The position numbers and the translations under genes were made by a program. The notes under the pieces were generated by a model. That model did not search any database and was not told where the DNA came from. It was given only the letters and a program-made list of their open reading frames with translations. A stretch of DNA of 64,000 nucleotides from Candidatus Woesearchaeota archaeon (lineage in GTDB: Archaea; Nanobdellota; Nanobdellia; Woesearchaeales; ARS49). Of the stretch, positions 8,321-52,063 are shown in pieces (position 1 is the first letter of the stretch; every line of letters begins with the position of its first letter). Where the stretch lies: NCBI GenBank assembly GCA_014729505.1, contig WJJS01000001.1:12938-76937 (forward strand), written 5' to 3'.

Positions 8321-8344
8321 AAAATATATATTGGGAAATATATG

Positions 8345-9893: not shown

Positions 9894-9894
9894 A

Positions 9895-11898
9895 TTATTT
9901 CGAACTTTTGAGATACCAATTCCTCAAACGGACAACCTTATCAACAACAGAAGGATACATATAGAACTGACCATATTTTTTTGCAGTTTTACTCAGCAAC
10001 TTATCAAGCTCAAGCATTTTGTACATCACCTGAATAGCGTCCTTTTTGCGATCGTATCTAAACAATAATTTGACAAGTTCGACGCCATCATCAGGATGTT
10101 TGGTCAACTTGTAAAAAATCTCCGCGTGAGAAACAGCCTTATCAGGATCGCCCTTTTGCGCATACAGTATAGAGATTGCTCGATGATACTGGGCAATCCA
10201 GGGCTTCTTTTTATGAAACTCATCGAGCAACTGCATTGCCTCGTCTATTCTACCCTGCGCATGAAGAATCTCTGAGTGCGCATGAACAAGATCAAACTCG
10301 CGAGTCCAAGAAGGTGCTTTATCAAGCAAAGACAGTCCCTTTTTTGGTTTTCCAACAAACGCGAGCAACACTGCTTCCCACAAAAGAAGAAACTCATTAT
10401 GAGGCGCCCTCTTACGAGCTTGTTGTACCACTCGAAGAGCGCGATCGTGATTACCGACGTGACTTAACGCGTTTATCACATGCTCTTCATATTGAAGATC
10501 CTTCTTGTGATATGGCAATCCCCTCTCAAGATACGCCAAAGCCTTTTTTGCTTTACCGTCACTGCGAGCAATACGACTGCCAGTAAGATAGCCAGTCTGA
10601 TCCTTAGGATACCACTTGATAATTTTGTCAGCTATCGGATACGCTTTGCCAGGCTTACCGAAATGATCGAAATCTTCGAGAAGAACATACAATGCGCGAA
10701 AGTTTCTGGGAAACTTCATAAGGACTTTTTTTGCCAGATCGTAATACGAGGTCCAGTCATTGCATTTTCGCAGACACTCAAGAGCAGAAAGCCAATTATC
10801 CAGGGTAGGAGGTAAGGAAAGAAACACCTTAGCAGCTTCGCGAAACCGGCCGAGCTCACGCAAGCAGGTAGCCTTTGTTTCAAGCAACACTATTGAAGAA
10901 TACTGCTTTAACTTTTTGTTTATCTCCCGCAATTTCTCCCGTTCATTGCCCTGCGTAAACAAGACATGAGGGTACAATGATGGAAGTTTGTCAATCTCAG
11001 AAGCTCTCTTCGCATATTCATGCGCCTTTTTATTCTTGCCGATGGAGAAATACAACGCAGTCAATCGGTTACACACATCAGAATTTTCAGGTTGCAAGAC
11101 TGCAAGTTTTTCATAGTCAGCAATAGCTTTCTTGACTTGATCTGTTACCATAAACAAATCAGCTCGGGCAGTGAGAATGCCTTCATCAGGACCCATCAGA
11201 GATATTGCATGTGTAAGAAACTTCTCCGCTTCACTGAATTTTCCTTCGGCTTTAAGAGAATCCACATACACCACGTAATCATATTCTGCAAATGAAAAAT
11301 TCTCTGCAAACGCTTGAGCAAAAAACTTGTTGGCCTTTTTATGCTCATGATTGTCAAAATACCGGCGTGCAAGATCAAGAAGACTGCGTGCAAGACCAAA
11401 CTTACGATGAATTAACTTCAAGGTCTGCTTATACTTCTTGTCATTTCGAGCATAATAATACAGGTGAGCGAGATCTTCATAATGAGACACTTTAAATGGT
11501 TCGAGCTTGATGACTTTCTTCATCGCGCTAAGAGCTTTAGAACTGTTTGTTTCCCTAAACAACCAATACACACGAAGAGGCCAATACACATTATTTGGTT
11601 GCCTCCTCATATACCTACGCAAAAGCCTTTCTTCACCAACAGCGTCGTGAAGCTCCCTATAGACATCAACTTTACTTTGCATAACATCAATTTCTTCAAG
11701 ACCGCACTCTCTTGCTTTGTCAAGGATTGCCAAAGCCTCCTTTTTCTTTTTGAGCTTAGAGAGTAACTCTGCTTTTCTCTGCAAATACAAAGGATGGCGA
11801 GGATTCTTTTCCAAAGCTCTATTGACGATGCGAAGCTGTTGACTAGTTGGTAAGTACGGATTAACAAACGGGAACACGGAATAGGTACAAGTCTTCAT
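9895..11898 (-). CDS. TPR-repeat protein
   Basis: It contains many 34-aa TPR-like repeats rich in A, L, Y and K. The track ORF extends to 12060, but the N-terminal extension looks non-coding, so the probable start is the MKTCTYSVFPF ATG near 11898. Confidence 0.6.
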   Translation of the reverse strand: MKTCTYSVFPFVNPYLPTSQQLRIVNRALEKNPRHPLYLQRKAELLSKLKKKKEALAILDKARECGLEEIDVMQSKVDVYRELHDAVGEERLLRRYMRRQPNNVYWPLRVYWLFRETNSSKALSAMKKVIKLEPFKVSHYEDLAHLYYYARNDKKYKQTLKLIHRKFGLARSLLDLARRYFDNHEHKKANKFFAQAFAENFSFAEYDYVVYVDSLKAEGKFSEAEKFLTHAISLMGPDEGILTARADLFMVTDQVKKAIADYEKLAVLQPENSDVCNRLTALYFSIGKNKKAHEYAKRASEIDKLPSLYPHVLFTQGNEREKLREINKKLKQYSSIVLLETKATCLRELGRFREAAKVFLSLPPTLDNWLSALECLRKCNDWTSYYDLAKKVLMKFPRNFRALYVLLEDFDHFGKPGKAYPIADKIIKWYPKDQTGYLTGSRIARSDGKAKKALAYLERGLPYHKKDLQYEEHVINALSHVGNHDRALRVVQQARKRAPHNEFLLLWEAVLLAFVGKPKKGLSLLDKAPSWTREFDLVHAHSEILHAQGRIDEAMQLLDEFHKKKPWIAQYHRAISILYAQKGDPDKAVSHAEIFYKLTKHPDDGVELVKLLFRYDRKKDAIQVMYKMLELDKLLSKTAKKYGQFYMYPSVVDKVVRLRNWYLKSSK

Positions 11899-13367: not shown

Positions 13368-15044
13368 ATGGACCTGACAGATCTCATACGGGAACTGGCA
13401 CTGCGCAATGCCGCAAAATTTGGCAAAGCAAACGCTAACGCTGTACTGGGATCAGTACTCAAAGCACGACCAGAACAAAAACAACACATCAACCTTATCA
13501 AACAACACGTACAAGGCATTGTCAATGAAATCAACACTCTTGACAGCAAGACATTACAACAAGCAATCGCCGCGTTACCAGAAAAAGAAAAAGAAACGCC
13601 AAAAGAAAAAACACTCAAAGACCTGCCAAACGTCAGTAATAGTGTCATCATGCGCTTTGCACCATCACCCTCAGGACCGCTGCACATAGCACACGCTTAT
13701 GGACTCAGTCTGAATTATCATTATGCAAAGCGATACCATGGCACATTCCTCTTTCGCATAGAAGACACGAACCCAGAAAACATCTATGCGCCTGCATATG
13801 ATATGATGGTCGAAGATGCACAATGGCTTACGAATAACGGCATAGATCATGTCATCATACAATCAGACCGGTTAGGCCGGTATTATGACATTGCAGAACA
13901 ACTAGTCGACAAAGAGAAGGCATACGTTTGTACATGCAACAGCGATGAATTTCGCACACTTCTCTTCAAAAAAACAGCCTGTCCATGCCGCACGGCAGGA
14001 GTCAAAGAGCACCTTAAACGCTACGCAGCAATGTTTTCAAGCTACAAACCAGGAGAAGCCGTCTTACGAAGCAAAACAGATATCACACACAAAAATCCGG
14101 CCATGAGAGATTTTCCACTCATGAGAATAAACGAGCATCCACATCCGCGCACAGGCACAGAACACCGCGTTTGGCCACTCATGAATCTTGCAGTATTTGT
14201 CGACGACATGGATTACCACGTCACACACATCATTCGAGCAAAAGAACACCGTGATAATGCAGCACGACAAGAATTTCTCTACAACGCGTTTGACCATCCA
14301 GTACCAGTAACGCTCTTTGTTGGACGCATCAATTTTACTGATATGAAAGTTAGCTGTAGTGCAACAAAAGCAGCAATAGAAGAAGGAAAATATACGGGAT
14401 GGGAAGATATACGATTACCTTTTCTACGACCATTACGACGACGAGGATACCAACAAGAAGCATTTATGAAATACGCCATAGAGATAGGCATCAGTCAAGC
14501 AGACAAAACAGTCAAAAAAGAAGAATACTTCAAAACACTCAATGCATTCAACAAAGATATTATCGATGCACATGCGAACCGCTACTTTTTCTTGCACGAT
14601 CCCGTACCGGTACACATTACCGACGTGGAACAAAAAACAATAACAATAGCTCTACATCCCGATGTCAAAGACCGAGGACTGCGAACCTTTAAGATTAACG
14701 GACACTTTTTACTAGAACGAAAAGATGTAGAACAATTACCAGACGGATTGCACAGGCTCATGGACTGCCTGAACTTTATCAAAAAAGGACAACAATTCAC
14801 CTTTCATTCATTTGCCTATGACGTGTTCAAACAAGAAGGACAACACATACTCCACTGGCTACCAGCACAAGACACACAACAAGTAATTGTACACCAGCCC
14901 GACGGAAAACAATTACAGGGAGTTGGAGAAACAACATTACAGGAAGTAGAAATCGGATCACTCATACAGTTTGAACGATTCGGATTTGCACGACTGGACG
15001 CTCACACAAGACAAGCACTAGAATTCTGGTATGCTCACAGATAA
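13368..15044 (+). CDS. gltX: Glutamate--tRNA ligase (archaeal type)
   Basis: The class I HIGH motif sits in RFAPSPSGPLHIAHAYG. The protein is 558 aa. A TTTAAATA box lies about 25 nt upstream of the ATG. Confidence 0.9.
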   Translation: MDLTDLIRELALRNAAKFGKANANAVLGSVLKARPEQKQHINLIKQHVQGIVNEINTLDSKTLQQAIAALPEKEKETPKEKTLKDLPNVSNSVIMRFAPSPSGPLHIAHAYGLSLNYHYAKRYHGTFLFRIEDTNPENIYAPAYDMMVEDAQWLTNNGIDHVIIQSDRLGRYYDIAEQLVDKEKAYVCTCNSDEFRTLLFKKTACPCRTAGVKEHLKRYAAMFSSYKPGEAVLRSKTDITHKNPAMRDFPLMRINEHPHPRTGTEHRVWPLMNLAVFVDDMDYHVTHIIRAKEHRDNAARQEFLYNAFDHPVPVTLFVGRINFTDMKVSCSATKAAIEEGKYTGWEDIRLPFLRPLRRRGYQQEAFMKYAIEIGISQADKTVKKEEYFKTLNAFNKDIIDAHANRYFFLHDPVPVHITDVEQKTITIALHPDVKDRGLRTFKINGHFLLERKDVEQLPDGLHRLMDCLNFIKKGQQFTFHSFAYDVFKQEGQHILHWLPAQDTQQVIVHQPDGKQLQGVGETTLQEVEIGSLIQFERFGFARLDAHTRQALEFWYAHR

Positions 15045-20135: not shown

Positions 20136-20253
20136 GGCGGAGTGGCTTAGCCTGGTTAGAGCACCGCGCTCATAGGTCATACCTTTGAGCACTGAGCTTT
20201 CGAGCTATGACGAAGAAACGCGGGGGTCACGAGTTCAAATCTCGTCTCCGCCA
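20136..20253 (+). tRNA. tRNA-Met (CAT), elongator-like, with a 43-nt intron at 37/38
   Basis: Manual fold: acceptor GGCGGAG/CTCCGCC, D-arm GCTT-AGCCTGGTTA-GAGC, anticodon stem CCGCG with loop CTCATA|intron 20175-20217|A then CGCGG, variable GGGTC, T-arm ACGAG-TTCAAAT-CTCGT and discriminator A. Confidence 0.75.
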
Positions 20254-33863: not shown

Positions 33864-35107
33864 ATGCAATGCAAAGACAATAATAAAGTTTATAGCAAAC
33901 GTCATGTTCTTACCAGTATGCGCGTTTTTGAAAGAGGGGAACTGAGACTCTTATGGCCGTTTTATGCCGATTATCTACTATCACAACTACTCTTTTTTGC
34001 ACCAGCGTTTTACATCGTGTATTTTCTGGATATTGGCCTGTCCTTGTTTCAGTTAGGACTTGTTATGGCTGCAGCACCACTGGCAGGTCTGCTCTTTGAG
34101 ATTCCAACAGGAGCCGTAGCAGATCTGTACGGGAGAAAATTTTCAGTCCTGCTAAGCTTTCTACTGGTAGCAGCAGGTTATTTGCTTCTCTTCTTCTTTA
34201 CAAGTATCCCAGCACTTATTGCCATTTTTGCGTTAATCGGATTTGCAGGAACATTCTGGTCGGGAGCAAAAGATGCGTGGGTTGTTGATCTTATAGGAAA
34301 AAGAAAAACATTACTCCAAATTATTTTGCAAAAGCAGATTTTCTCAGCAGTCTTGGACTAGTCATATCAGGCATCCTTGGAGCGTTCATTGTTGAAGTCA
34401 TTGGCCTACGATCCATATGGTTATTTGCTGCAGGTGCGTACGCGATATCATTTGTAGTTCTACTCACAGCCCCTGAACGTTATCGCAGACGACACACTTC
34501 ATTTAGTCGAGCTCTTAAAACTGTAACACAACAAAGCGGGGATGCGTTACGATACTGTCGAATGCACCACATACTTTACGCATTTTTCATTGCAAGCGCT
34601 CTTTGGCTTATCGCAGGAGCAATAGGAGGAGTCATGGCATGGACACCCTTTCTTATCGAACTTGGTTTTGCAGAACAACACTTTGGCTACTTGTGGAGTG
34701 CGATGGCCGTAGTACAAATGATGGGACTTGCCATCTCACAATTCGCTCTAAAAACGATCTCGTCTCGAAAAGTGATCATTGTTGCCCAGTCATTGTTTGC
34801 TGCAACTCTCCTTGCCGTGTATTGGGTATCTTCACTGCCGTTTGCGTTGTTACTGGTACTGTTTAGCATCTTATTTGCCTCAGCAAAAGCACCTTCATTA
34901 AACGTGTTCTTTCATCGGTTTACTCCTTCATACATGAGAGCAACCATCGGTTCAGTCAAGGCAACACTCGGCGCAGCTATAGCCATACTCATGATGCCGA
35001 TTTCAGGACATTTTATTGACACTATAGGTGCTCAAAACGCATTATTTAGCGCGGGACTTGCATTACTGCCTGCAGTAGGGATATACCTGCTAATGAAAGA
35101 ACACTAA
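33864..35107 (+). pseudogene. MFS transporter interrupted by a frameshift in an A-rich run near 34296-34310 (pseudogene or sequencing error)
   Basis: The N-terminal-half ORF (to 34361) and the C-terminal half (the frame is open from 34289) are both polytopic. The second frame reads ...LSSLGLVISGILGAFIV, continuous with the 34562 ORF. Confidence 0.6.
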
Positions 35108-38088: not shown

Positions 38089-38127
38089 ATTTTTTTTCCT
38101 TTTTCGTATATGTGAATGCAATTAACA
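38087..38127 (+). repeat. 41-nt direct repeat (copy 1), a duplicated ferredoxin 3'-end remnant
   Basis: TTTTTCCTTTTTCGTATATGTGAATGCAATTAACAGGAC is identical to 38219-38259. On the - strand it encodes a remnant ...PVNCIHIYEKGKKI*. Confidence 0.75.
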
Positions 38128-38209
38128 GGACGAGCATTCTGCCGCTGTTTTTGCCCAGCGGTTGCAATGCGTGACGCTCGGCTTTGCCTCGATCACGCAG
38201 TTAGAATTT

Positions 38210-38467
38210 CTAGATTCTTTTTTTTCCTTTTTCGTATATGTGAATGCAATTAACAGGACAACACTCTGCGGCGTCCATATTATCTTTGAGATCATCGAGT
38301 TCGAGATGTTCTTCAAGACCGACCTTTTTGGCTCCCTTCAAATCAACTTTGCCATCATCACTTATCGTCCAAAATTCTTCAGCAATAGCAGTACAACTAC
38401 CACAACCAATACATTCAGAACGCTCATGAACAATCCTGAACTTTTTATCTTTGTTTTTCTCAGGCAT
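38210..38467 (-). CDS. 4Fe-4S ferredoxin
   Basis: ECIGCGSCTAI plus AECCPVNC. The protein is 85 aa. Confidence 0.75.
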   Translation of the reverse strand: MPEKNKDKKFRIVHERSECIGCGSCTAIAEEFWTISDDGKVDLKGAKKVGLEEHLELDDLKDNMDAAECCPVNCIHIYEKGKKRI

Positions 38468-38826: not shown

Positions 38827-39483
38827 ATGTGTGGCCGCTACGCAATAGTCCAACAAAAAAACGATCTTGAAACATTCTATGACGCCAACATGAAAGCAGC
38901 ATGGAAACCGCGATACAACGCAGCACCCACACAAGAATTACCACTAGTGCTTGACGCAGATCCTGCGCATATCGTAGTCGCTCGATGGGGACTTATTCCT
39001 TTTTGGGCAAAAGACGACAAGATAGGAGCACGACTCATCAACGCACGAAGCGAAACTGTGGCAGAAAAACCGACTTTTCGAACATCGTTTAAGAAACGAC
39101 GATGCCTCATTCCCGCTACACATTTTTACGAATGGAAGAAAACAACAAGCATCAAGAAACCATTTGCAATTCATCTGAAGTCAAAAGAGTTGTTTTCATT
39201 TGCAGGACTGTGGGATGAATGGAAGAGTTCTAAAGGAGAATTGATTCGCACGTTTACAATATTGACGTGCGGTCCTAACAGTGTAATGAAAAAGATCCAT
39301 GATCGCATGCCGGTCATACTCAAAAAATCTGACGAAGAGGCGTGGATGAATCCTACGAGCTCAGAGACTGCACTGCAGAAGTTGTTGAAACCTTTTTCAT
39401 CGTCGCAACTCGTCGCGTACGAGATCAGCACGCTTGTCAACTTGCCGACAAACGACAACCCTGCAGTAGTACAACCAGTCTAA
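38827..39483 (+). CDS. SOS-response-associated peptidase (SRAP/YedK/HMCES family) abasic-site processing protein
   Basis: The N-terminus is MCGRYA (Cys2 nucleophile). The protein is 218 aa and matches the DUF159 pattern. Confidence 0.8.
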   Translation: MCGRYAIVQQKNDLETFYDANMKAAWKPRYNAAPTQELPLVLDADPAHIVVARWGLIPFWAKDDKIGARLINARSETVAEKPTFRTSFKKRRCLIPATHFYEWKKTTSIKKPFAIHLKSKELFSFAGLWDEWKSSKGELIRTFTILTCGPNSVMKKIHDRMPVILKKSDEEAWMNPTSSETALQKLLKPFSSSQLVAYEISTLVNLPTNDNPAVVQPV

Positions 39484-39535
39484 TCTCTACATTCTTTCTC
39501 ACAAGTCACAAGACACGACTTCGCAGCGCTTTTTA

Positions 39536-40006
39536 GTGACTACGCTTTTGTTTTTTGTCATGGGGTTATTAGGGGTGCGAGGAGAACAACGTATCATCAA
39601 TGATCATATTCTCTACTATGCCGTTTATCACACGCCGTGTTTATTGATCGACGCAGCAAACTGTGCAAACCCACACAAACTATATCCTCTGGCACGTGAA
39701 GAACAACTCTACAACATCCACGTTATTGAAGTCGAACTACTCTACGTTTTTCGCGACGTCCTACTGCGCTGTCACCGCTTTGCACAACAACGAGCAGTGC
39801 GCCACATACTCCTCACGACATTCAACCAACTCTTTCACTATCAAGACGCCAAAGAAAACGACAACATCCACGAACATGCATGGGAATTGCTGCGCACACT
39901 AGGACAACGCTATGACGTACGCGTCGGCATACATCACCGTCACGAAGCGCGCGCAAGACGATTTTGTGACGCGATCATTACGCAGCACTCTCTGGCGGGA
40001 TATTGA
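39536..40006 (+). CDS. Hypothetical protein
   Basis: 156 aa and His-rich, with no recognised motifs. Confidence 0.35.
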   Translation: MTTLLFFVMGLLGVRGEQRIINDHILYYAVYHTPCLLIDAANCANPHKLYPLAREEQLYNIHVIEVELLYVFRDVLLRCHRFAQQRAVRHILLTTFNQLFHYQDAKENDNIHEHAWELLRTLGQRYDVRVGIHHRHEARARRFCDAIITQHSLAGY

Positions 40007-40009
40007 ATT

Positions 40010-40324
40010 ATGGGACATACCGTATGGAGCCAACGGATGAATGCAGAGCGCATCATCACAGAACTACTTCGTTACAAGAAAGCATTGCGAAGCGAACAAC
40101 AAGCACTGTTTGACGAATTACTGAAACGATCCATGAATCATCTCGGTACCATAAGTTACGCAAACAGCATGCACACCTGGGCATTACTGCTCTTATCAAT
40201 ACTACTAGAACAAGAACAACGCATAAAGAAACTAGAACATGTGGTTAATAGATACCTATCAAAAAAAGAACAAGATCGTCGTGTGGCTGAAAACGAAAAC
40301 GACGAATATGCATCGAACCTATGA
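40010..40324 (+). CDS. Hypothetical protein; 3' end overlaps the polymerase gene start, so the extent is uncertain
   Basis: 104-aa ORF that overlaps 40239..42794 by 86 nt in another frame. Confidence 0.3.
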   Translation: MGHTVWSQRMNAERIITELLRYKKALRSEQQALFDELLKRSMNHLGTISYANSMHTWALLLLSILLEQEQRIKKLEHVVNRYLSKKEQDRRVAENENDEYASNL

Positions 40325-42794
40325 GTACTCTGTCACACTCTACGCACACGAAGATGCACGAGAATTCCTTACAACGAACAAGATTGCTTTTACAGAACAA
40401 CTCAAAAAAGATCCTTTTCGCAACAAGAAACATGTTCTTGCCATAACGTTATCATGCGAACGACTCGCACCATTTGTAAGATGGTTTGAACTCGGCACCA
40501 AACACCGCATACCGCTTTACAATGCAGATATCACGCCGGAACAACGCTTTCTTTACGAGAACAAGCTAGTACCGTGCAGCAACGTGCGAGACGTTGATGG
40601 GAGACTTGTACACGTCAACGAATCCGCACCACCGCTAAGCACTGTTCATTTGCGATGCGCCACACAAGGACCTATTACACGATTAGAATACCAGGATCAC
40701 ACTATCGTAGGCGAGGAACGAGAAGTACTCGCGCATTTTACGCAACGCTTCAGACAGGACGATCCAGATGTACTACTTATGCGACGAGCATACAAAGCAG
40801 TACCACATCTCTTTGAACGGTTACGTGCGAACGGATTGCACGTGCCTTTTCATCGATGGGATGAGATACCGCTGCGCCACCGCGGCGGCAAGACACACTT
40901 CAGTTACGGAAGAGTATATTATCAAGATCACTCGTTTCAACTGCGAGGACGATTACTCGTTGACACGGCAAGCAGTGTAGGATCAACATGCTCTGTACCT
41001 GCAATCATCGAACTTGCACAGCTCACAGGCACTCGATTCCAACGCGTAGCAGCACGCAGTTTCGGTGCCTCATTTCAACTTCAACTCGTCAAAGAACTGC
41101 TCGCCCAAGATCTGCTTGTGCCATACAAGGAAAAACCCTTTGATGAACCGCTGCGCATGACAGAGTTATTCGACGCAGACAGAGCAGGACATACCTTTGA
41201 TCCTCAACTAGGATTTCACAATGATGTTGTAGCAATAGACTTCTCAAGCATGTATCCATGGATCATCCACAACTACAACATCAGCGCAGATACCATACTC
41301 ACAAAAAAAGGAAAGAAGACCAAGATTCCTGCAGTACCAATTGATGTAACCACACAATATCAAGGAGTGATACCAAAAGCAATCAAACCATTGTTAGATC
41401 GACGCATGTACTACAAAAAACATCCGACGCCGGAAAACAAACGACGAGCAATAGGACTAAAAACACTGCTCGTGACCTGTTATGGTTATCTGCGATTTCG
41501 CGAATTTAAAATGGGACTTGCCACATCACACATGGCAATTTGTTCATACGCGCGAGAACTCCTCCTACAATCAGCAACGCTTGCAGAAGAACAAGGCTTT
41601 CGCGTCATTCACGGCATCATCGATTCACTCTACATATCAAAAAAAGACATTACCACAACAGAAGTCGAAACATTTCGAAAAGAACTAGAACACATGAGCG
41701 GTATACCCGTTGCCTGCGATGGCATCTTCAAATGGATCGTGTTTCTTTCACGACGACATGACAACACTGTCGGAGTGCCGGCCCGTTATTTTGGCGCATA
41801 TAAAAATGGTGGCATTAAAGCAAGAGGTATTGAAGTACGACAATCGAGTGCGCCGCTACTTATACGACGATTCCAACAAAACGTGTTAGAAGAGCTCGCA
41901 GCGTTTTCAACGAAAAGAGCGATACAGGATCACTTGCCACAAGTCATGAAACGCGCACGAGCAGTCCTGCACGATCTGCCTGCGACGCCACGAGAAGAAC
42001 TGTGTTGCAGAATACGCATCAGTAAGACCACGTATTCTCGAAACATTCCACAACGGCAAGTGATACGCTTGTTAACACAACAAGGGAGAGACATTATCGC
42101 TGGACAGGTCATACGGTTCTGGTACAGTGCGAATGGACCGTTACTAGTCGATATGACTGGAAGGCCAGACTACAAAAAATATCGCGATTTGTTATTACGC
42201 GCAATACACTCAGTGTACCAGCCTTTCGGTTATACTACCAAACAACTACAACACCTCCTATTAGACGAATATCAAAGCGTTCTGCAAGATTTTGCGCGAC
42301 AACAGATCCGCTACGAATACGTGCCTATGAAAAAACACTATGCACAAAAACGAGGACTGTCAGAGAGAATCCTGCGACAACGACTGGAACGACAAGGATG
42401 GACGGTGTGGCGCGGCGGCAGCATACATATTACTCGTTATGAAGAACTGTATCCCAACGTACGACGAAAGTACGAATTACTCATCCGTCTGCTTGACGAT
42501 CATAAGCCAGACACAAAAGAAATACTGCAATATTATTGCATGATACAGCACGGCATGCCAGATTTTCTCTGCTACAAAAATGGACGATTCAAATTTGTTG
42601 AATGCAAATTGCAATACGAGCAATTAAGTCATCGACAAAAACGCTGCATTATGAAGCTACAAGACCTGGGATTTGATGTGGAAGTTCACAAACTCGTTGA
42701 CAAACGCACAAAAATGAGAGAGGCACTAGTTGACATGTTTACCAATTGCAAAATAGTACGAGAACGACAACTAGCCCTACTCTCAACATGGTGA
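40239..42794 (+). CDS. Divergent family-B DNA polymerase (exonuclease-dead, motif C degenerate; PolB2/Dpo2-like) fused to a C-terminal PD-(D/E)xK Hjc/VRR-NUC-like nuclease domain
   Basis: The PolB N-terminus is WLIDTYQKKNKIVVWLK.... The exonuclease region is present but Exo I reads LRCAT, not FDIET, and Exo II has no YN..FD. GRLLVD and motif A DFSSMYPWII are present. Motif B is K..LVTCYGYL, the KxY region is YFGAYKNGGIKARGIEVRQSS, and motif C is IHGIIDSLY (vs YGDTDS). The C-terminal domain reads ERILRQRLERQGWTVWRGG ... GMPDFLCYKNGRFKFVECK (D...E-x-K). Confidence 0.65.
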   Translation: MWLIDTYQKKNKIVVWLKTKTTNMHRTYEYSVTLYAHEDAREFLTTNKIAFTEQLKKDPFRNKKHVLAITLSCERLAPFVRWFELGTKHRIPLYNADITPEQRFLYENKLVPCSNVRDVDGRLVHVNESAPPLSTVHLRCATQGPITRLEYQDHTIVGEEREVLAHFTQRFRQDDPDVLLMRRAYKAVPHLFERLRANGLHVPFHRWDEIPLRHRGGKTHFSYGRVYYQDHSFQLRGRLLVDTASSVGSTCSVPAIIELAQLTGTRFQRVAARSFGASFQLQLVKELLAQDLLVPYKEKPFDEPLRMTELFDADRAGHTFDPQLGFHNDVVAIDFSSMYPWIIHNYNISADTILTKKGKKTKIPAVPIDVTTQYQGVIPKAIKPLLDRRMYYKKHPTPENKRRAIGLKTLLVTCYGYLRFREFKMGLATSHMAICSYARELLLQSATLAEEQGFRVIHGIIDSLYISKKDITTTEVETFRKELEHMSGIPVACDGIFKWIVFLSRRHDNTVGVPARYFGAYKNGGIKARGIEVRQSSAPLLIRRFQQNVLEELAAFSTKRAIQDHLPQVMKRARAVLHDLPATPREELCCRIRISKTTYSRNIPQRQVIRLLTQQGRDIIAGQVIRFWYSANGPLLVDMTGRPDYKKYRDLLLRAIHSVYQPFGYTTKQLQHLLLDEYQSVLQDFARQQIRYEYVPMKKHYAQKRGLSERILRQRLERQGWTVWRGGSIHITRYEELYPNVRRKYELLIRLLDDHKPDTKEILQYYCMIQHGMPDFLCYKNGRFKFVECKLQYEQLSHRQKRCIMKLQDLGFDVEVHKLVDKRTKMREALVDMFTNCKIVRERQLALLSTW

Positions 42795-42882: not shown

Positions 42883-43659
42883 ATGCACAAAGCATTAACG
42901 ATAGTATTGCTAGGAATTCTTCTAGTTGGATGCTCAACAACACTAGACACGTCGTCGACAAATCCGCCAACAGCGCCGCACTCAACTTCAAGTCCTCCAA
43001 CAACACAACACCCCGCAACAGAGAACAATTCACAACACACCACAACACAAAATGATTCACAATATCCGACAACGCAGAACGATTCACAACACACGGCAAC
43101 CAATGACTACGTTGCGGGACGAGAACTCTTCAAACTACAACGGGATTCAGACAGTGCACTGGGACAACGAGTAACAGACTTTTTCCCACTTCCTGCAGGA
43201 GCAGTTCTTGTCGAGACAAGACATTTTGGAGCGCAACAATTCAAAGCAAATCTTGTATCAAAAACAGGAGACATATTTCCTTTAGTCAATGATGAAGGAT
43301 ACATTCTTACCACTACGCTGCACTCTTTTGCGGCAGGCCAGTACCTGCTAGACATGATCATCAATGGCGAAGTTACCTTTATCATACGAACACCGGACAT
43401 AGAAGAAGCAACATCATGGAGCGGAGCCGGCAAGAAGTTCACCCCCTTCTTTACACTTTCAGGAACCAACACCTTTGAGATGTCGTTTCAAGGAAATGGA
43501 TTATACATCGTGTCACTATACAATCAAGCAGGAGAACGCATCGCCGTACTTGCACAAGGCGACACCACAGAAAAAACAAACACTGACGTAACCGTACCAC
43601 AAGGACTCTATCTGTTAGGTATAGAATCAACAGGAGTCTGGGACATACAACTCAAATAA
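42883..43659 (+). CDS. Lipoprotein with a Thr/Gln-rich repeat linker
   Basis: MHKALTIVLLGILLVGCSTT (lipobox LVGC) and repeats TTQNDSQ(Y/H)(P/T)TTQNDSQHTAT. Confidence 0.55.
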   Translation: MHKALTIVLLGILLVGCSTTLDTSSTNPPTAPHSTSSPPTTQHPATENNSQHTTTQNDSQYPTTQNDSQHTATNDYVAGRELFKLQRDSDSALGQRVTDFFPLPAGAVLVETRHFGAQQFKANLVSKTGDIFPLVNDEGYILTTTLHSFAAGQYLLDMIINGEVTFIIRTPDIEEATSWSGAGKKFTPFFTLSGTNTFEMSFQGNGLYIVSLYNQAGERIAVLAQGDTTEKTNTDVTVPQGLYLLGIESTGVWDIQLK

Positions 43660-46144: not shown

Positions 46145-46268
46145 GTCCCCGCCCCCGGACTTGAACCAGGAACCTCGCGGTGACGGCTGACTCGCCTTCA
46201 CGTCTCGAGCGTTGCTCGGAATCAGTTGAGTTTCTACAGCCGCGCGCTCTACCATTGAGCTAGGCGGG
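46145..46268 (-). tRNA. tRNA-Tyr (GTA) with a 51-nt intron at 37/38
   Basis: Manual fold on the minus strand: acceptor CCCCGCC/GGCGGGG (C1:G72, archaeal Tyr identity), D-arm GCTC-AATGGTA-GAGC, anticodon stem CGCGG with loop CTGTAG|intron|A then CCGCG, T-arm CCTGG-TTCAAGT-CCGGG and discriminator A. Confidence 0.75.
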
Positions 46269-46346
46269 GATAGACGAGAAAAAAAACTACGGGGTTTAAA
46301 AGGGTTTTGGACGAAAAGACATAAATATCCCTTGCTTTGAGCCTTT

Positions 46347-48106: not shown

Positions 48107-50149
48107 CTACTGTAAGCGACTGACATTCTCATATTTCGAGATGGACACTACATGATCTGCAAAACTCTCAATCTTTCGCTCATGACTTACAATAATTACT
48201 TGGTCAAGCTCAAGAGAGTCAAGGACCTCGCGCAAACGATCAAGCTGCTGGGACGAAAAACCATCGGTGGGCTCGTCAAGAATCAGCACATCCCTCGTCT
48301 TAATAGTAGTAATCAAGTTATTAATGACCTTAGTTAGCGCAAGACGATACGCGAGCGCACAAGCGGTACGCTCACCGCCACTCAAATTATCAATCGTTGT
48401 CTCATAACCATTTTGCTCAATAATAGGTGTGAACTCATCATCAAGACGTGCAGAAAACAAATCATCATCAACAAGAGCCGCAAACCACTCGGCAAACAAA
48501 TCATTAAAATTGTGATAAATACGCGCTAACACCTGCTTTTCAATATCCTGCATGAGCGGAATAAAATAACGCGACAACCAGTCACGCGTTTGAGAAACAT
48601 AACGCATCTTCTTTTGAGCCTTCACCTTTTCCTCGATCTCCTTATCAAGCGAATCAATTGTTTGAGAGAGAAGATCAGCTCGCTGAGCAAGCGCCGCAAC
48701 ACGCGCATGCAATTCCTGAAACGCACTAAGAGCAGTATCAAGACGTTTTTTCACCTCCTGCATCGCTTCAGGAACACCAGGAGTAATACGTTGACGCAAA
48801 AGTGCCAGTTCGTTCTTATGATCTTTTTCCAAGGTCATGAACTTCTCCAAGCGGGACTTCAATGTGAGAAGTTCCTTTTCTTGCTCTTGGCGCTGCGCAA
48901 CCTTTGCACGAACTTGCGCTTGAGCCTTTTCCTTTTCAAACATTTCTTGCAGCGCGGACCGAATATCCGAACACCTTTTTTCCAACTGTTCTTTTTGCTC
49001 CTTTTGCGACAATATCTTATCCTGCATACGCTGCAATTTTTGAGACTCCCGCTCAGCAATATTTTGCTTATGCTCTACAGACACGTTCTGCAAACAAGTC
49101 GGGCACTGAGACAAATTATTAATCGCCTGCTTCAACTCCTCGCTCTGCGAGATATGAGTACTACACACGGTGAGTCGCTCACGCACAGATGTTAATTCCT
49201 GCTCGACACTCTTTTGCTCCTCTTCGATCTTTTTGCGCTGCTCAGCAAGCTTCTCCTCGGTCAAGTGAGGCTCCAAAGGCACAGACACTGCCTGTGTCAA
49301 CACCGCGATACGAGAACGAAGATCCTCAGAAAATTGCGAAGTCTGAACGCATTTCTCTTCGAGAAGACGAATTTTTGTAATAAGTTCTTGTTGTTCTTTT
49401 GCAACGCGTTCCCTTTCTGCCACTTCCTTTTTTATCGTCTCAACCACTTGAAACGCAGAATCCTTTTGCGCCTTGACATCACGAAGCGATGCGATAGTGT
49501 GCGCATGATCCTTCTTCTTTTCTTGGAGTCCTTGTTGTTTTACAACAATATCCTTTGTAAACCCTTCAAGGTTGCGCTGCTTGTCACGAAGCGTGCGCAG
49601 GTAAGGCTGCGCATTATCACAAATACGCTTATACTTGTCAATATCAAAGATCTTTCGAAGCACATTAATCCTTGTCTCAGCACTCTCAGTCAAAATCCGC
49701 TTCATCTGCTCTTGAGGAGTATAAACCGTATACCGGTAAATCAACGTTTTACTCTTTGTCAGCATATCTTGAGGGTAGCCAAGCAAGTCAAGAATGCGCA
49801 CCTTGAGTTCAGTAGGAGTCAAATTATGCACGACACCATCAATAATAAGCACGCCTTCATCTTGATCAACAGTTCCTCGAGACGCTTTTAGAGATCGCTT
49901 GATAAACACATGCTGACCGTTCACGTTGAACTCGAGCGTCACAGATCCCTTTTTTGTACCATGACGAAGCAAAGCATTACCTGATAACATACCCCGAAGA
50001 ATGCCAAACAATGAAAACTCAATTGCGAGAAGAACCGTAGATTTGCCAGCACCAATATCGCCCTGCAACAATACCTTTCCTTGAGAAAATGATAACTTCT
50101 CATTAACATAAGAACGGATATTTTCCAGTTGTAAAGAGAGCAATCGCAT
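48107..50149 (-). CDS. rad50: DNA double-strand break repair ATPase Rad50
   Basis: Walker A QGDIGAGKST, a long coiled coil with zinc-hook CPTC, signature LSGGERTACALAYRLAL and Walker B ILDEPTDGFS. The start was chosen at MRLLSLQLENIRSY. Confidence 0.85.
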   Translation of the reverse strand: MRLLSLQLENIRSYVNEKLSFSQGKVLLQGDIGAGKSTVLLAIEFSLFGILRGMLSGNALLRHGTKKGSVTLEFNVNGQHVFIKRSLKASRGTVDQDEGVLIIDGVVHNLTPTELKVRILDLLGYPQDMLTKSKTLIYRYTVYTPQEQMKRILTESAETRINVLRKIFDIDKYKRICDNAQPYLRTLRDKQRNLEGFTKDIVVKQQGLQEKKKDHAHTIASLRDVKAQKDSAFQVVETIKKEVAERERVAKEQQELITKIRLLEEKCVQTSQFSEDLRSRIAVLTQAVSVPLEPHLTEEKLAEQRKKIEEEQKSVEQELTSVRERLTVCSTHISQSEELKQAINNLSQCPTCLQNVSVEHKQNIAERESQKLQRMQDKILSQKEQKEQLEKRCSDIRSALQEMFEKEKAQAQVRAKVAQRQEQEKELLTLKSRLEKFMTLEKDHKNELALLRQRITPGVPEAMQEVKKRLDTALSAFQELHARVAALAQRADLLSQTIDSLDKEIEEKVKAQKKMRYVSQTRDWLSRYFIPLMQDIEKQVLARIYHNFNDLFAEWFAALVDDDLFSARLDDEFTPIIEQNGYETTIDNLSGGERTACALAYRLALTKVINNLITTIKTRDVLILDEPTDGFSSQQLDRLREVLDSLELDQVIIVSHERKIESFADHVVSISKYENVSRLQ

Positions 50150-50195
50150 AGTAAGAGGAAGAGGCAAAAGAGTATATAAGCACTGTTGGCGAGAA

Positions 50196-51122
50196 CTATA
50201 TATCTTTTGGCACCACAAACTGTCTATGGTGTTCAAGAGCAGTAATGAAGCGTTTTATTCTGTCAATACTAAGGTCTGATTGTCCAAACTGTCGACGAAG
50301 AGTCACCGACAAGACCGTGCCGCGCTCGTAACGACAGGTACTAGTATCAGTGAAAAAATAGTACTTGCCGTTAATCTTTTTTAGAGCGATAAGATGATGA
50401 TGTGCGCCATCCTTACAAAGCCATATCGGTCTTTTATGATTAAGATCAGAATACCACTGCGTAATTGAATCAACAACAACGTCGAGCTTCACTTTTTGAA
50501 CCTGTTGCAGGGTCTTAAAGAATTTTGGAGCGTGCTTTCTAATAGCTGCACGATTTCTTGTGTTCATGGCCCTAGAAAGAGCACAGGCAGCAGAACAAGG
50601 AGTGTGAGAGATAAAAGGAAATTTTCTCATCAGTTTCTCACGACGGGAAAAATACTCGTAATACGAATATTTCTTTTCAAGATACTTCTCTTCTTGCTCA
50701 CGAATAAACTCCCGAACACAACAAGCAGGATACCCATACAGTTTGCCAGCAATTTTATGAGCTGCTGTTTGACGGCCGCGCTTTATTTCAGACAAATAGT
50801 TCTCAAAAAGCTTTTTCTGCTTTTTTGAAGAAAAAACGTCAAAACCGTACCACGTACCTGCCATTTCCCACTCAATAATATTCTTATGAATACGCGCAAT
50901 CTGTTCAAACGATTTAGGATGGCTCACAGAGAAAAGACAGTTATTTTCCTGCAGATGAAACTGGAAATGCCTGCGCTCATCCAAAGTTGTGGGCGTGATA
51001 CGAAACTGAAGATAGGTAGCAGGCTTTAAACCTGCGGCAAAAAGAAGCAAACGCATACGCGCAGCAGTATCAAGGGCAGGCGTATCCTCTGCAAAGTCAA
51101 GAAACCTCCTCTTTTTATCCAT
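50196..51122 (-). CDS. Hypothetical protein immediately upstream of rad50 (not a recognisable Mre11)
   Basis: 308 aa with no metallophosphoesterase motifs. It contains YGYPACCVREF. Confidence 0.4.
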   Translation of the reverse strand: MDKKRRFLDFAEDTPALDTAARMRLLLFAAGLKPATYLQFRITPTTLDERRHFQFHLQENNCLFSVSHPKSFEQIARIHKNIIEWEMAGTWYGFDVFSSKKQKKLFENYLSEIKRGRQTAAHKIAGKLYGYPACCVREFIREQEEKYLEKKYSYYEYFSRREKLMRKFPFISHTPCSAACALSRAMNTRNRAAIRKHAPKFFKTLQQVQKVKLDVVVDSITQWYSDLNHKRPIWLCKDGAHHHLIALKKINGKYYFFTDTSTCRYERGTVLSVTLRRQFGQSDLSIDRIKRFITALEHHRQFVVPKDI

Positions 51123-51199
51123 GATCAGTGGTACGACAACGCAGTATATATTTGTTTTGGACCAAAAAGTTTAAGAATCCATTAAAAATCAATTGTCAC

Positions 51200-52063
51200 A
51201 TGAAATTTCTCGCCATCGGTGATCTGCACGGCGCCATACCAAAGATTCACTTCAAGAATTTTCAGGCGGTTATTGCGCCAGGAGACTTTTGTTCAGATGC
51301 ACCACGACAATACATGTTTCAAGCATTACAATATAATTTGTCACATCCCACAAAAAAAGAAAAACAATGGTATGATATTGTAGGCAAACGCAAAGCAAAA
51401 GCAATGATTGAACAAAGCCTTGCAGACGGCAGAGTCATAGTAGAACGACTCAACGCTCTGAACGTACCTGTATATGTCGTACCAGGAAACTGGGACTGGA
51501 CACCAAAAGATGACAGCGATTGGCATTATTACAGAAAGCATCACTGGACAGCACTTCTTGAAGGATTAGAAAATATAATCGATTGCCATCATCGCCTCGT
51601 CGATGCAGGAACATTTGATATCATAGGACACGGCATTATTTCAGGACCGGAATATCCGCAACACAAAAAAGATCAACAACAACTCACTGCAAAACAACGA
51701 AAAGAAAAACGACGCGAGTACGACAGACAATATCGCAAACTGGACCGTTTATTTCAGCAATCACAAAAACCAGTACTTTTTATTTCTCACAATGTGCCTT
51801 ATGGCACGCCATTTGACAAGATCAACAATCCGTCCTCGCCACGAGACGGAGAACACGTAGGGTCAGTACTTGCAAGAAGAATGAGTCTCAAATATTCGCC
51901 GCTGCTAGGCATCGCAGGACACATGCACGAATATTTTGGCAAGTGCAGACTTGGAAAAACAACGTGGATTGATACCGGTTTTGGCTCAGATGTCAATGTA
52001 GCAATTGACGCAGCACCGCGAAAAATCCGTAAGATAGTTTTCAAAGGGAACACTGCAGTATAA
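51200..52063 (+). CDS. Calcineurin-like metallophosphoesterase (Mre11/SbcD-related fold); motif III is GNWD, not GNHD
   Basis: LAIGDLHG, APGDFCSD, VVPGNWD and GHMHEYFG motifs. It is divergent to the rad50 operon. Confidence 0.55.
   Translation: MKFLAIGDLHGAIPKIHFKNFQAVIAPGDFCSDAPRQYMFQALQYNLSHPTKKEKQWYDIVGKRKAKAMIEQSLADGRVIVERLNALNVPVYVVPGNWDWTPKDDSDWHYYRKHHWTALLEGLENIIDCHHRLVDAGTFDIIGHGIISGPEYPQHKKDQQQLTAKQRKEKRREYDRQYRKLDRLFQQSQKPVLFISHNVPYGTPFDKINNPSSPRDGEHVGSVLARRMSLKYSPLLGIAGHMHEYFGKCRLGKTTWIDTGFGSDVNVAIDAAPRKIRKIVFKGNTAV

Follow-up and report, generated by a model that had tools for sequence, protein, structure and literature searches.

A PolB2-type polymerase fused to a FAN1-like VRR-NUC domain in a predicted DNA-damage-tolerance operon of Woesearchaeota

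Background

The closest described counterpart of the locus analysed here is the operon of the PolB2 "mutasome", a damage-tolerance system whose three core genes encode iRadA, PPB2 and the family-B polymerase PolB2 (Makarova et al. 2014, PMC4104785; Timinskas et al. 2025, PMC11791011). The enrichment of SRAP genes beside polB2, as well as the exact order SRAP-iRadA-PPB2-PolB2, has been published (Timinskas et al. 2025, PMC11791011), with the upstream SRAP gene tabulated for Halobaculum, Methanoregula, Chloroflexota and Elusimicrobiota. PolB2 proteins bear a D(K/R) motif (PMC7544198, PMC11791011), which in published models contacts the N-terminal arm of PPB2, and a motif C of the form HGIIDSLWV or HGIVDCLWV, with IID in S. 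islandicus. The S. islandicus enzyme (Dpo2) is reported to be an active extender in translesion synthesis (TLS) (PMC8764526, PMC7390963) that is required for targeted mutagenesis (PMC8764526, PMC11791011). The searchable text and supplements of PMC11791011 contain none of the terms "nuclease", "VRR", "DPANN", "Woesearchaeota" or "Nanoarchaeota".

Results and discussion

The operon and its small proteins

The window, a stretch of 64,000 nucleotides from a Candidatus Woesearchaeota archaeon, contains at positions 38827-42794 of the + strand four co-directional ORFs, which encode an SRAP protein, two small proteins and a family-B polymerase of 851 aa that bears a VRR-NUC domain at its C-terminus. 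An earlier note on this DNA had claimed four such genes, and every one of the ORFs was found, but its description of the two small products as unknown proteins has to be abandoned, as they are iRadA and PPB2, both established and conserved partners of PolB2. Similarly, the pairing of SRAP with PolB, which the note had counted, together with the fused nuclease, as unusual, had already been published as enriched (PMC11791011). The block is thus the PolB2 mutasome operon, with the same three core genes in the order '1a' and SRAP upstream; the identity of its parts is well supported.

The SRAP gene (38827-39483, + strand) encodes a 218-aa member of the SRAP/YedK/HMCES family of abasic-site proteins, as the note had proposed. 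The Pfam SRAP model matches residues 1-205 (E=2.8e-74), and the relatives in PDB include 2f20 (E=3e-38), HMCES (1e-20) and YedK (2e-15). The N-terminus, MCGRY, places the nucleophile Cys2 directly after the initiator Met, an arrangement typical, by sequence, of the proteins that protect abasic sites in single-stranded DNA by covalent attachment. With this residue and a full-length Pfam match the protein resembles E. coli YedK and human HMCES; we detected no difference from them, and by sequence it appears to be an ordinary family member. An SRAP gene adjoins PolB2 in 18 of 46 related loci and is found in none of 31 control loci (p=2e-5). Since it is missing from the other 28 PolB2-related loci, we regard SRAP as accessory to the system and not as one of its core components.

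The second ORF (39560-40006, + strand) encodes iRadA, an inactivated RadA/Rad51 paralogue of 148 aa. The NCBI annotation and the family alignment favour the ATG start at 39560, the alternative being a GTG at 39536 (156 aa). The protein consists of the Rad51/RadA core without the ATP-binding loop: it has neither a Walker A GK[ST] nor a DNA-binding domain at its N-terminus; compared with the published mutasome iRadA proteins it is a minimal version. The third ORF (40010-40324, + strand) encodes a small, helical protein of 104 aa, which hhalign matched to 11 published PPB2 sequences (99.0%, E=3.6e-18, 79 columns starting at residue 1). It belongs to arCOG07300 (Pfam DUF8156), and its homologues carry precomputed assignments to the Pfam family PF26485. 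In 27 homologues the N-terminal arm MGHT is conserved, with G2 and H3 invariant and T4 present in at least 90%. This arm corresponds to the MG(R/H)T of the described operons, with which this operon and its relatives also have in common the polymerase motifs D(K/R) and HGI(I/V)D, the lack of conserved carboxylates in Exo I/II, occasional fusions of iRadA with PPB2, and a clamp-binding-like motif at the PolB2 C-terminus. The order iRadA-PPB2-PolB2 is kept in 34 of the 46 related loci. Unlike in the described operons, PolB2 here extends about 170 residues further, into a VRR-NUC nuclease. The operon itself was already known, but an intact FAN1-like VRR-NUC domain on the C-terminus of PolB2 we found described in no paper.

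The polymerase moiety

The polB2 gene (40239-42794, + strand; 851 codons and a stop) begins within the PPB2 ORF, whose 3' end it overlaps by 86 nt, and its product matches the Pfam models DNA_pol_B and VRR_NUC. We consider this ORF to be real, because an identical NCBI protein exists (GF342_00350) and because about 50 full-length homologues (42-50% identity) come from independent metagenomes; the same observations exclude an assembly artefact as its origin.

The DNA_pol_B match (E=7e-14) covers residues 280-632. The preceding region (residues 1-300; 40239-41138, + strand) includes a degenerate 3'-5' exonuclease that lacks the carboxylates of Exo I and Exo II: the Pfam exonuclease-domain model gives no match to the 851-aa protein at E<=1, the Exo II segment "YNGDSFD" of Deep Vent polymerase (5h12) is replaced by "RRAYK-A" in the HMMER alignment, and in 49 aligned homologues no acidic position of the Exo I segment is conserved. 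The N-terminus is colinear with that of a published euryarchaeal PolB2 (27% identity, E=5e-33). The PolB2-specific D(K/R) motif is represented by D314-R315 (41178-41183, + strand), with D314 invariant and R315 shared by 90% or more of the 49 sequences, in a context (ADRGG) that also occurs in published PolB2 sequences. Motif A, VAIDFSSMYPW (41229-41261, + strand), aligns with DFSSMYP of solved PolBs and contains the catalytic D334, which is invariant together with F335, S337 and P340. Motif C, HGIIDS (residues 458-463; 41610-41627, + strand), aligns with YGDTDS of 5mdn, so that Ile takes the place of the first Asp in DxD and D462 is kept; H458, I460 and D462 are invariant. The polymerase is therefore, by its sequence hallmarks (no conserved Exo I/II carboxylates, the D-R motif, the motif A Asp and HGIID), an exonuclease-dead enzyme of the PolB2/Dpo2 type. 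On all three points, the loss of the exonuclease, the HGIIDS string and the assignment to PolB2/Dpo2, the note had judged correctly; its exact reading of the Exo I DxE as RCA is tentative.

The loss of the first Asp of motif C and of conserved Exo I/II carboxylates would also be expected if the polymerase were inactive and served only as a scaffold, binding DNA and PCNA so as to bring the nuclease into place, and for a long time the prediction for PolB2 was inactivity (Rogozin 2008, as cited in PMC4104785). We find this improbable: D334, D462, H458 and the residues of the motif B/KxY region are invariant in 49 sequences, primer-independent PolBs that likewise lack the first Asp are active, and S. 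islandicus PolB2, also with IID, is reported in PMC8764526 to be an active TLS extender. The Dpo2 proteins of S. islandicus and S. solfataricus, which are damage-inducible, share with the window polymerase the IID motif C, the loss of the proofreading site and probably the role, predicted for the window protein, in extending mismatches and lesions; they lack the nuclease domain and their kinship is distant (the euryarchaeal PolB2 N-terminus is 27% identical to the window protein).

At the junction between polymerase and nuclease we found a PCNA-box-like motif, QSVLQDFA (residues 679-686; 42273-42296, + strand), in which Q679 is invariant. The pattern Qxx[LIVM]xx[FYW] occurs at this position in 47 of 49 fused proteins, with 5.6 expected from shuffled sequences, and among 55 relatives of non-fused size, 42 have the same motif close to their C-terminus. 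The junction motif is predicted to mediate PCNA binding.

The VRR-NUC domain

The extra C-terminal domain of about 170 aa (residues ~680-851) was described in the note as a PD-(D/E)xK nuclease, and this holds: residues ~689-843 (42303-42767, + strand) form a genuine VRR-NUC domain, which includes a helical insertion, is matched by Pfam VRR_NUC over residues 763-816 above the gathering score (E=6.6e-7; 29.8 bits versus 23.8) and has its catalytic residues intact. The best NCBIfam model scores under its own curated cut-off. The catalytic core P-D775 ... E788-C-K790 (42561-42608, + strand) lies in PDFLCYKNGRFKFVECK, the string quoted in the note, which is indeed present at residues 774-790; it aligns with the "GLPD...VEVK" segment of human FAN1, and we take D775, E788 and K790 to be the counterparts of FAN1 D960, E975 and K977. 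These three residues are invariant in both the fused (49) and the stand-alone (58) sets, as is E709 in the GLSE of the first helix (42363-42365, + strand). Q800 (42636-42638, + strand), in the LSxxQ helix that follows ExK, is also invariant and aligns with LSHKQ of FAN1. From the invariance of the E, D, ExK and Q residues we infer that the domain is very probably a catalytically active nuclease. The protein ends with QLALLSTW (42768-42791, + strand), a second, weaker PIP-like motif with an invariant Q844; QxxL occurs within the last 30 residues of 48/49 fused and 42/58 stand-alone proteins, and an aromatic residue at +6 is present in only 19/49 fused proteins.

FAN1 is the best match of the domain in PDB, both in sequence and in fold, and the domain is not an ordinary PolB thumb extension, which the note had named beforehand as the alternative. 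FAN1 combines the activities of a 5' flap endonuclease and a 5'-3' exonuclease and acts alongside translesion polymerases in crosslink repair. The human protein and its Pseudomonas aeruginosa homologue share with the window domain the PD...ExK...LSxxQ core and additional helices outside the minimal VRR-NUC core, and the PDB entry 9gy0, FAN1 with a 5' flap and PCNA, parallels the PIP-like motifs of the window protein. Because the Pfam scan of the window protein revealed nothing similar to the UBZ, SAP and TPR modules of FAN1, and because a polymerase thumb precedes the domain, we call it FAN1-like rather than a FAN1 orthologue. The restriction-endonuclease-like fold and the catalytic motif are also common to minimal prokaryotic and phage VRR-NUC proteins (4qbn, 4qbo, 4qbl) and to archaeal Hjc, which give fold matches too; the free Woesearchaeota homologues are small and single-domain like the former. 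The domain could accordingly be a Holliday-junction or four-way-junction resolvase of the Hjc or minimal VRR-NUC type, tethered to PolB2 e.g. for recombination-dependent restart, which would work as a dimer, with symmetric junctions and not flaps as its substrates; we regard this as fairly unlikely.

Fused and split forms

The 46 PolB2-related loci comprise 21 with fused and 25 with non-fused PolB2. In sister genomes the nuclease is a separate gene of ~170 aa and PolB2 stops just after the Qxx[LI]xx[FY] motif; we consider the polymerase and the nuclease a true fused-or-split pair. The fusion is a lineage-wide feature of Woesearchaeota/Nanoarchaeota. The organisms that carry members of the block are uncultivated. 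Our literature searches turned up no account of a PolB2-VRR-NUC fusion, in agreement with the note, which knew of no described PolB fused to VRR-NUC/Hjc; the fusion occurs beyond the window genome, and public databases already tag such proteins with both Pfam domains.

Some observations would fit a housekeeping nuclease gene that became fused to its neighbour, was tolerated and acts apart from bypass. The free nuclease gene was found in 32 loci, 31 of them without a nearby PolB2 gene, and shows no conserved neighbours; most MAGs with this gene revealed no PolB2 among the retrieved loci, as judged with two peptide patterns; and fused and free forms interleave in trees. Such uncoupled coexistence is nevertheless very improbable. 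PolB2 is the sole multi-domain partner of this nuclease subfamily in an exhaustive HMMER search of 1.84 billion representative proteins, the junction is fixed right after the PIP-like motif (in the 47 proteins mentioned above), the fusion has been kept with all catalytic residues across sequences just 42-50% identical, and no MAG in the sample has both fused and free copies. Non-fused PolB2 and the free nuclease occur together in five MAGs, in one of them on the same contig, beside SRAP.

From this fusion/split logic we suggest that nuclease and polymerase are coupled. As the note had argued, a DNA-damage-tolerance role is the best reading, and the block is probably a chromosomal operon of Woesearchaeota (DPANN) that combines incision with lesion bypass. 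By analogy with the model put forward for PolB2 complexes elsewhere, PolB2 may be joined by iRadA and a trimer of PPB2; the complex, tethered to PCNA via the junction motif, would extend primers across or past lesions such as abasic sites, and the FAN1-like nuclease would cut branched or flapped DNA met or made by lesion synthesis. As hypothetical substrates we consider 5' flaps produced by strand displacement, junctions at forks or gaps, or the strand that carries an SRAP-DNA crosslink. A single PCNA-bound machine could thus combine incision with bypass or gap filling.

Genomic context

The GC content of 38827-42794 is 45.2%, compared with 43.2% for the window (98.7th percentile of equal-sized sliding windows). 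The note had remarked on this excess, which is real, about 2 points, and had seen in it a possible horizontal origin, an argument that is weak given the size of the excess, the lack of mobility genes and terminal repeats, and the housekeeping flanks. PolB2 operons have been reported to move horizontally among archaea, and the genomic context of the operon varies between relatives, yet we give almost no credence to a recently acquired gene of a mobile element or virus (casposon, pPolB plasmid or provirus). A search of 2.9 million viral contigs gave only one distant match (26% identity). We saw no sign of a casposon or viral pPolB: there is no Pfam match to protein-primed PolB, no Cas1, integrase or capsid gene among the neighbours and no pair of terminal inverted repeats around the block. 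The neighbouring genes encode aEF-2, the thermosome, sugar-phosphate enzymes, TspO, a Rad50-like ATPase and RNA polymerase B.

A family B2 polymerase fused to a VRR-NUC nuclease

Four co-directional ORFs occupy window positions 38827-42794 on the plus strand, as had been read from the sequence, and the last of them (ORF4, 40239-42794 (+)) encodes an 851-aa protein in which a family B DNA polymerase is followed by a VRR-NUC nuclease domain. The product is identical to the NCBI "hypothetical protein" GF342_00350 from Candidatus Woesearchaeota archaeon, which assigns the window to a DPANN archaeon. The fused nuclease is the new element of this block, while its other components, namely SRAP, iRadA, PPB2 and PolB2, are already known. 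The author of the earlier note knew of no described PolB with a VRR-NUC or Hjc fusion, and we likewise found no description of the PolB2-VRR-NUC fusion in the searchable literature and no mention of it in the key PolB papers (PMC4104785, PMC7544198, PMC11791011). A dinoflagellate-virus paper that features VRR-NUC and PolB fusions turned out to concern unrelated proteins (Bro-N-VRR-NUC and helicase-pPolB). Public databases already tag the fused proteins with both Pfam domains. What we describe is a domain fusion specific to one lineage of uncultivated archaea, for which we infer a function.

We assign the polymerase to the B2 group (PolB2), a placement that rests on its signatures and on operon context. 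It matches the Pfam DNA_pol_B model (E=7e-14), and the best NCBIfam models (NF004416 and NF004418) score under their curated cut-offs. With a published Methanomicrobiales PolB2, ORF4 aligns colinearly from its first residue (27% identity, E=5e-33); with solved B1/B3-type enzymes, significant alignment starts only at about residue 239. Motif C reads HGIIDS (residues 458-463), not YGDTDS, as was noticed at first inspection; it aligns to the YGDTDS of a solved archaeal PolB, so that the second Asp alone is retained, and H458, I460 and D462 do not vary among 49 homologues. A conserved His combined with just one Asp in motif C, a D(K/R) motif and a degenerate exonuclease domain are listed as features of the B2 group (Kazlauskas et al. 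2020, PMC7544198; Timinskas et al. 2025, PMC11791011), and published PolB2 versions of motif C include HGIIDSLWV, HGIVDCLWV and, in S. islandicus, IID (PMC11791011). The D(K/R) motif, in the loop before motif A, corresponds to D314-R315 in 'DADRAGHTFDP', opposite which a published PolB2 has 'TADRGGMMFQP' in the alignment; D314 is shared by all 49 homologues and R315 by at least 90% of them.

The Pfam exonuclease-domain model has no match on ORF4. Exo II of Deep Vent polymerase (5h12), 'YNGDSFD', aligns to 'RRAYK-A' with the carboxylate replaced, and the Exo I segment contains no conserved acidic residue in the 49 homologues; an invariant Asp (D242) persists near the Exo III position. Judged from these alignments, the proofreading exonuclease site is lost, in line with the initial reading that its catalytic residues are gone. 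A polymerase with a single Asp in motif C might be catalytically dead and serve as a scaffold, an alternative that we consider quite improbable; S. islandicus PolB2 is described as an active, damage-induced mismatch and lesion extender (PMC8764526, PMC7390963).

The C-terminal domain has the restriction endonuclease-like fold and the PD-(D/E)xK core that had been proposed for it. Pfam VRR_NUC (PF08774) matches residues 763-816 (E=6.6e-7, 29.8 bits versus a gathering score of 23.8; free nuclease homologues reach 32-33 bits), and the catalytic string PDFLCYKNGRFKFVECK is located at residues 774-790. FAN1 is the best PDB sequence match of residues ~680-851, with GMPD...FVECK...LSHRQ aligned to GLPD...LVEVK...LSHKQ, and other PD-(D/E)xK nucleases ranked lower among the matches. 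Three helices interrupt the core between its first strand and the PD strand, and it is probably because of them that the domain matches FAN1 over a longer stretch than it does minimal enzymes. FAN1 acts both as a 5' flap endonuclease and as a 5'-3' exonuclease, and one of the matched entries (9gy0) contains FAN1 bound to a 5' flap and PCNA. The likeness is confined to the nuclease domain; ORF4 is not a FAN1 orthologue, as the UBZ, SAP and TPR modules are absent by Pfam and the nuclease is preceded by the palm and thumb of a PolB.

Residues E709, D775, E788, K790 and Q800 are invariant in the 49 fused homologues, which are only 42-50% identical overall, and likewise in an alignment of the window domain with 58 free homologues; because of this invariance in both sets, the nuclease is very likely catalytically active. 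The domain could instead be an Hjc-like junction resolvase that is merely tethered to PolB2, which we regard as unlikely. The Pfam model of the Holliday-junction resolvase Hjc (PF01870) gave no match, and Hjc was not the best fold match.

Polymerase partners encoded in the operon

Makarova et al. (2014, PMC4104785) and Timinskas et al. (2025, PMC11791011) reported that polB2 shares a conserved operon with the genes of an inactivated RadA, iRadA, and of a small protein of helical structure, which corresponds to arCOG07300 and is now named PPB2 (PMC11791011). PolB2, iRadA and three copies of PPB2 are predicted to form a heteropentamer (PMC11791011). For comparison, 78 related loci were taken from contigs representing one genome per species, and local profile searches served to annotate them; an alignment-based query retrieved these loci, while a single-protein query gave none. 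The order iRadA-PPB2-PolB2 is found in 34 of the 46 PolB2 loci, and in the window both genes lie directly upstream of polB2. The two small ORFs of the block, initially regarded as unknown, are these two partners, even though searches with ORF2 and ORF3 sequences against Pfam, NCBIfam and PDB gave no meaningful match; the sole profile match of ORF2, a de novo designed protein (7uek), was dismissed.

ORF2 (39536-40006 (+)) is iRadA. It encodes 156 aa from a GTG codon, but the NCBI annotation and the family alignment favour the ATG at 39560, which yields a protein of 148 aa that begins at the core and has no N-terminal helical domain. An AlphaFold2 model built from 22 homologues (pLDDT 94) has the Rad51/RadA ATPase-core fold, and at the P-loop position, i.e. 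the first strand-helix junction, the sequence is GVRGEQRIIN, without GK[ST]. Comparison of the ORF2 family with the profile of published iRadA sequences by hhalign gave probabilities of 93% and 92% (E=3e-7 and 7e-7, 103-118 columns), and matches to single published sequences were weak (E=0.12 and 0.38). The iRadA and PPB2 comparison profiles comprised 11 sequences each, taken from the Timinskas supplement.

By its profile, ORF3 (40010-40324 (+), 104 aa) is PPB2: its family aligns with the published sequences at 99.0% (E=3.6e-18) over 79 columns from residue 1. Its homologues are tagged as DUF8156 (PF26485) in precomputed Pfam annotations. The N-terminus reads MGHT, and among 27 homologues, which share a conserved core of ~78 aa, G2 and H3 are invariant and T4 is present in at least 90%. 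An MG(R/H)T motif of PPB2 has been described (PMC11791011), and in published models the N-terminal 'MGRT' arm contacts the PolB2-specific D(K/R) motif (PMC11791011). In seven distinct loci (L001/L004, L011, L015, L020, L026, L030 and L031 in our collection) iRadA and PPB2 form a single fused ORF of 223-282 aa, as is also described in the literature for PolB2 operons elsewhere.

polB2 starts within the PPB2 gene, whose last 86 nt (40239-40324) it shares, and comparable overlaps exist in related loci (including L005, L007, L008, L013 and L029), which suggests translational coupling. The variable tail of PPB2 is conserved to some extent, and this conservation is probably imposed by the N-terminal coding sequence of polB2 in the other frame.

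ORF1 (38827-39483 (+), 218 aa) contains a full-length SRAP domain of the YedK/HMCES type (Pfam E=2.8e-74, profile positions 1-212 of 214), and its N-terminus, MCGRY, retains the nucleophile Cys2, as the initial identification implied. SRAP proteins shield abasic sites (PMC11791011). An SRAP gene was found within ~1.2 kb of PolB2 in 18/46 PolB2 loci versus 0/31 control loci (Fisher p=2e-5), mostly directly downstream of the polymerase in related loci and upstream of it in the window. The neighbourhood, whose conservation had been suggested as a check, thus recurs in part of the related loci, and the pairing, first thought unusual, is not. Enrichment of SRAP near polB2 has already been reported by Timinskas et al. 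(2025, PMC11791011), who also tabulated the exact order SRAP-iRadA-PPB2-PolB2 for haloarchaea, Methanoregula, Chloroflexota and Elusimicrobiota. The link between SRAP and PolB2 is real, but already published.

Fused and free forms of the nuclease

About 50 database proteins of ~820-870 aa carry both the polymerase and the VRR-NUC domain, and related polymerases of ~660-760 aa are without the nuclease. The nuclease also occurs as a free gene that encodes ~155-230 aa with 45-66% identity to the window domain, and nearly all of these proteins bear the label Woesearchaeota or Nanoarchaeia. When 1.84 billion representative proteins were searched exhaustively with HMMER, 49 representatives of the nuclease family were recovered at E<=1e-30; PolB2 fusions account for every long architecture in this set, and the remaining proteins have 95-295 aa. 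The mean identity of the window domain is 51% to the fused and to the free class alike, which indicates one orthologous nuclease that exists in either a fused or a free form. Neighbor-joining trees of the polymerase and nuclease parts gave no resolution between a single and multiple origins of the fusion.

The retrieved loci comprise 21 with a fused protein, 25 with a non-fused PolB2 and 32 with a free nuclease, 31 of the latter without a nearby PolB2 gene. A non-fused PolB2 and a free nuclease occur together in five MAGs. Among the retrieved loci, a small and pattern-limited sample, no MAG contains both a fused and a free copy, and the exclusion of one form by the other within a MAG is suggestive only. 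L035 (7905-14156 in its contig), from one of these five MAGs, is the only retrieved locus with a split nuclease near the polymerase: non-fused PolB2 (7905-10115), SRAP (11293-11865 (-)) and the free VRR-NUC (13662-14156) are found within ~6 kb, with SRAP between the other two. Clustering of the genes around the 32 free nucleases revealed no conserved neighbour (at most five loci share one). A fusion in which the polymerase and nuclease are functionally uncoupled is in our view very unlikely.

The attachment point of the nuclease is also conserved. Q679, directly before the nuclease, is invariant in 49/49 fused proteins, and the junction motif Qxx[LI]x[DE][FY] is present in 47/49 of them versus 5.6 expected by shuffling, as well as near the C-terminus of 42/55 relatives of non-fused size. 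This motif resembles the canonical PCNA-interacting box and is presumed to bind PCNA; Timinskas et al. (2025, PMC11791011) reported motifs of this kind at the C-termini of certain PolB2 or iRadA proteins. Since the junction and the C-termini of non-fused polymerases share the motif, the nuclease is joined directly after the presumed clamp-binding tail of the polymerase. Fused and free nucleases alike terminate in a second QxxL motif, weaker than the first, that includes an invariant Gln (Q844).

Six operon-bearing contigs (L011, L023, L027, L036, L038 and L040) come from MAGs labelled Acidobacteriota, Omnitrophota, "bacterium" or Candidatus Brocadia, among them a 2.0-Mb Omnitrophota contig (L023), and many other operon contigs are labelled "uncultured Methanosarcinales". 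These labels could reflect mis-binning, mislabelling or a real transfer to bacteria.

Proposed function

The composition of the PolB2 mutasome is so far known from genomics and AlphaFold models only. A conserved fusion with a split counterpart, in which the FAN1-like nuclease is catalytically intact, serves as a "Rosetta stone" clue: it suggests a mechanistic tie between DNA incision and PolB2-dependent lesion bypass in one archaeal lineage, and it predicts an extra mutasome partner in genomes with the free nuclease. On balance we favour, with moderate confidence, the interpretation of the block as a damage-tolerance PolB2 mutasome operon with a nuclease-fused polymerase that may couple incision and lesion bypass; true mechanistic coupling of this kind we rate lower, as somewhat less likely than not. 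The Woesearchaeota enzyme would be a PCNA-tethered machine in which lesion extension is coupled to structure-specific incision; the nuclease could remove flaps displaced by PolB2, open a stalled fork or a gap, or excise the strand that carries an SRAP crosslink.

More tentatively, and with rather less confidence, we propose that the FAN1-like VRR-NUC is an integral catalytic module, either fused or as a free subunit, of the PolB2 mutasome of Woesearchaeota and related DPANN. Such a PCNA-tethered "cut-and-bypass" machine would combine incision at 5' flaps, fork junctions or an SRAP-DNA-crosslinked strand with translesion extension. To our knowledge, no other prokaryotic translesion polymerase has a built-in structure-specific nuclease. 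If the proposal is true, the machine would correspond in function to the way in which eukaryotes pair FAN1 with Pol zeta, a TLS polymerase of the B family. The operon also shows small-genome DPANN archaea to maintain and elaborate a dedicated damage-tolerance system, and the fusion provides a concrete, testable lead on how the PolB2 mutasome handles damaged DNA.

Genomic setting

The operon is surrounded by ordinary chromosomal housekeeping genes: aEF-2, a thermosome subunit, a PfkB kinase, a class II aldolase, RpiB, ribulose-phosphate epimerase and ferredoxin on the 5' side, and TspO, a HIT protein, a Rad50-like ATPase, a metallophosphoesterase and RNA polymerase subunit B on the 3' side. The higher local GC content, from which a horizontal origin had been considered possible, is confirmed, but its excess is small: the block has 45.2% GC versus 43.2% for the window, which ranks at the 98.7th percentile among windows of equal size and makes the shift real yet modest. 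We reject horizontal origin as the main explanation in view of this small excess, the housekeeping flanks, the lack of flanking inverted repeats and a single distant viral match. That the block is a mobile element, such as a casposon or a viral pPolB, is extremely unlikely: ORF4 has no pPolB Pfam match, there are no Cas1, integrase or capsid genes nearby, no terminal inverted repeats flank the block, and 2.9 million viral contigs (IMG/VR) yielded one distant match only.

TATA-like A/T-rich stretches lie ~25 nt 5' of the ATG codons of SRAP and iRadA, and T-runs follow the polB2 stop. Just 5' of the operon there is a perfect 42-nt direct repeat (TTTTTTTTCCTTTTTCGTATATGTGAATGCAATTAACAGGAC) at window 38090-38131 and 38218-38259; the copies are 128 nt apart, the first after the epimerase stop codon and the second within the 3' end of the minus-strand ferredoxin gene. 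It is possibly a duplication or an assembly artefact. Just downstream of the operon, a 258-aa ORF (42883-43659) without a Pfam match contains three imperfect 27-nt tandem repeats (43004-43100) that encode a repeated Thr/Gln-rich peptide (TTQNDSQ...).

A second, putative DNA-repair locus lies 5-9 kb downstream of the operon and comprises a Rad50-like SMC/AAA_23 ATPase (709 aa, 48107-50236 (-)) and a calcineurin-like phosphoesterase (51128-52063 (+)) that could be Mre11-like. Adjacent ORFs at 33864-34361 and 34562-35107 correspond to the two halves of the MFS_1 transporter model, N-terminal and C-terminal respectively, and may represent a split or frameshifted transporter gene. Rfam detects two tRNAs of 118 nt (20136-20253 (+)) and 124 nt (46146-46269 (-)), which ARAGORN does not report and which are probably intron-containing archaeal tRNAs; the latter is accompanied by a 24-nt near-repeat and a short hairpin.
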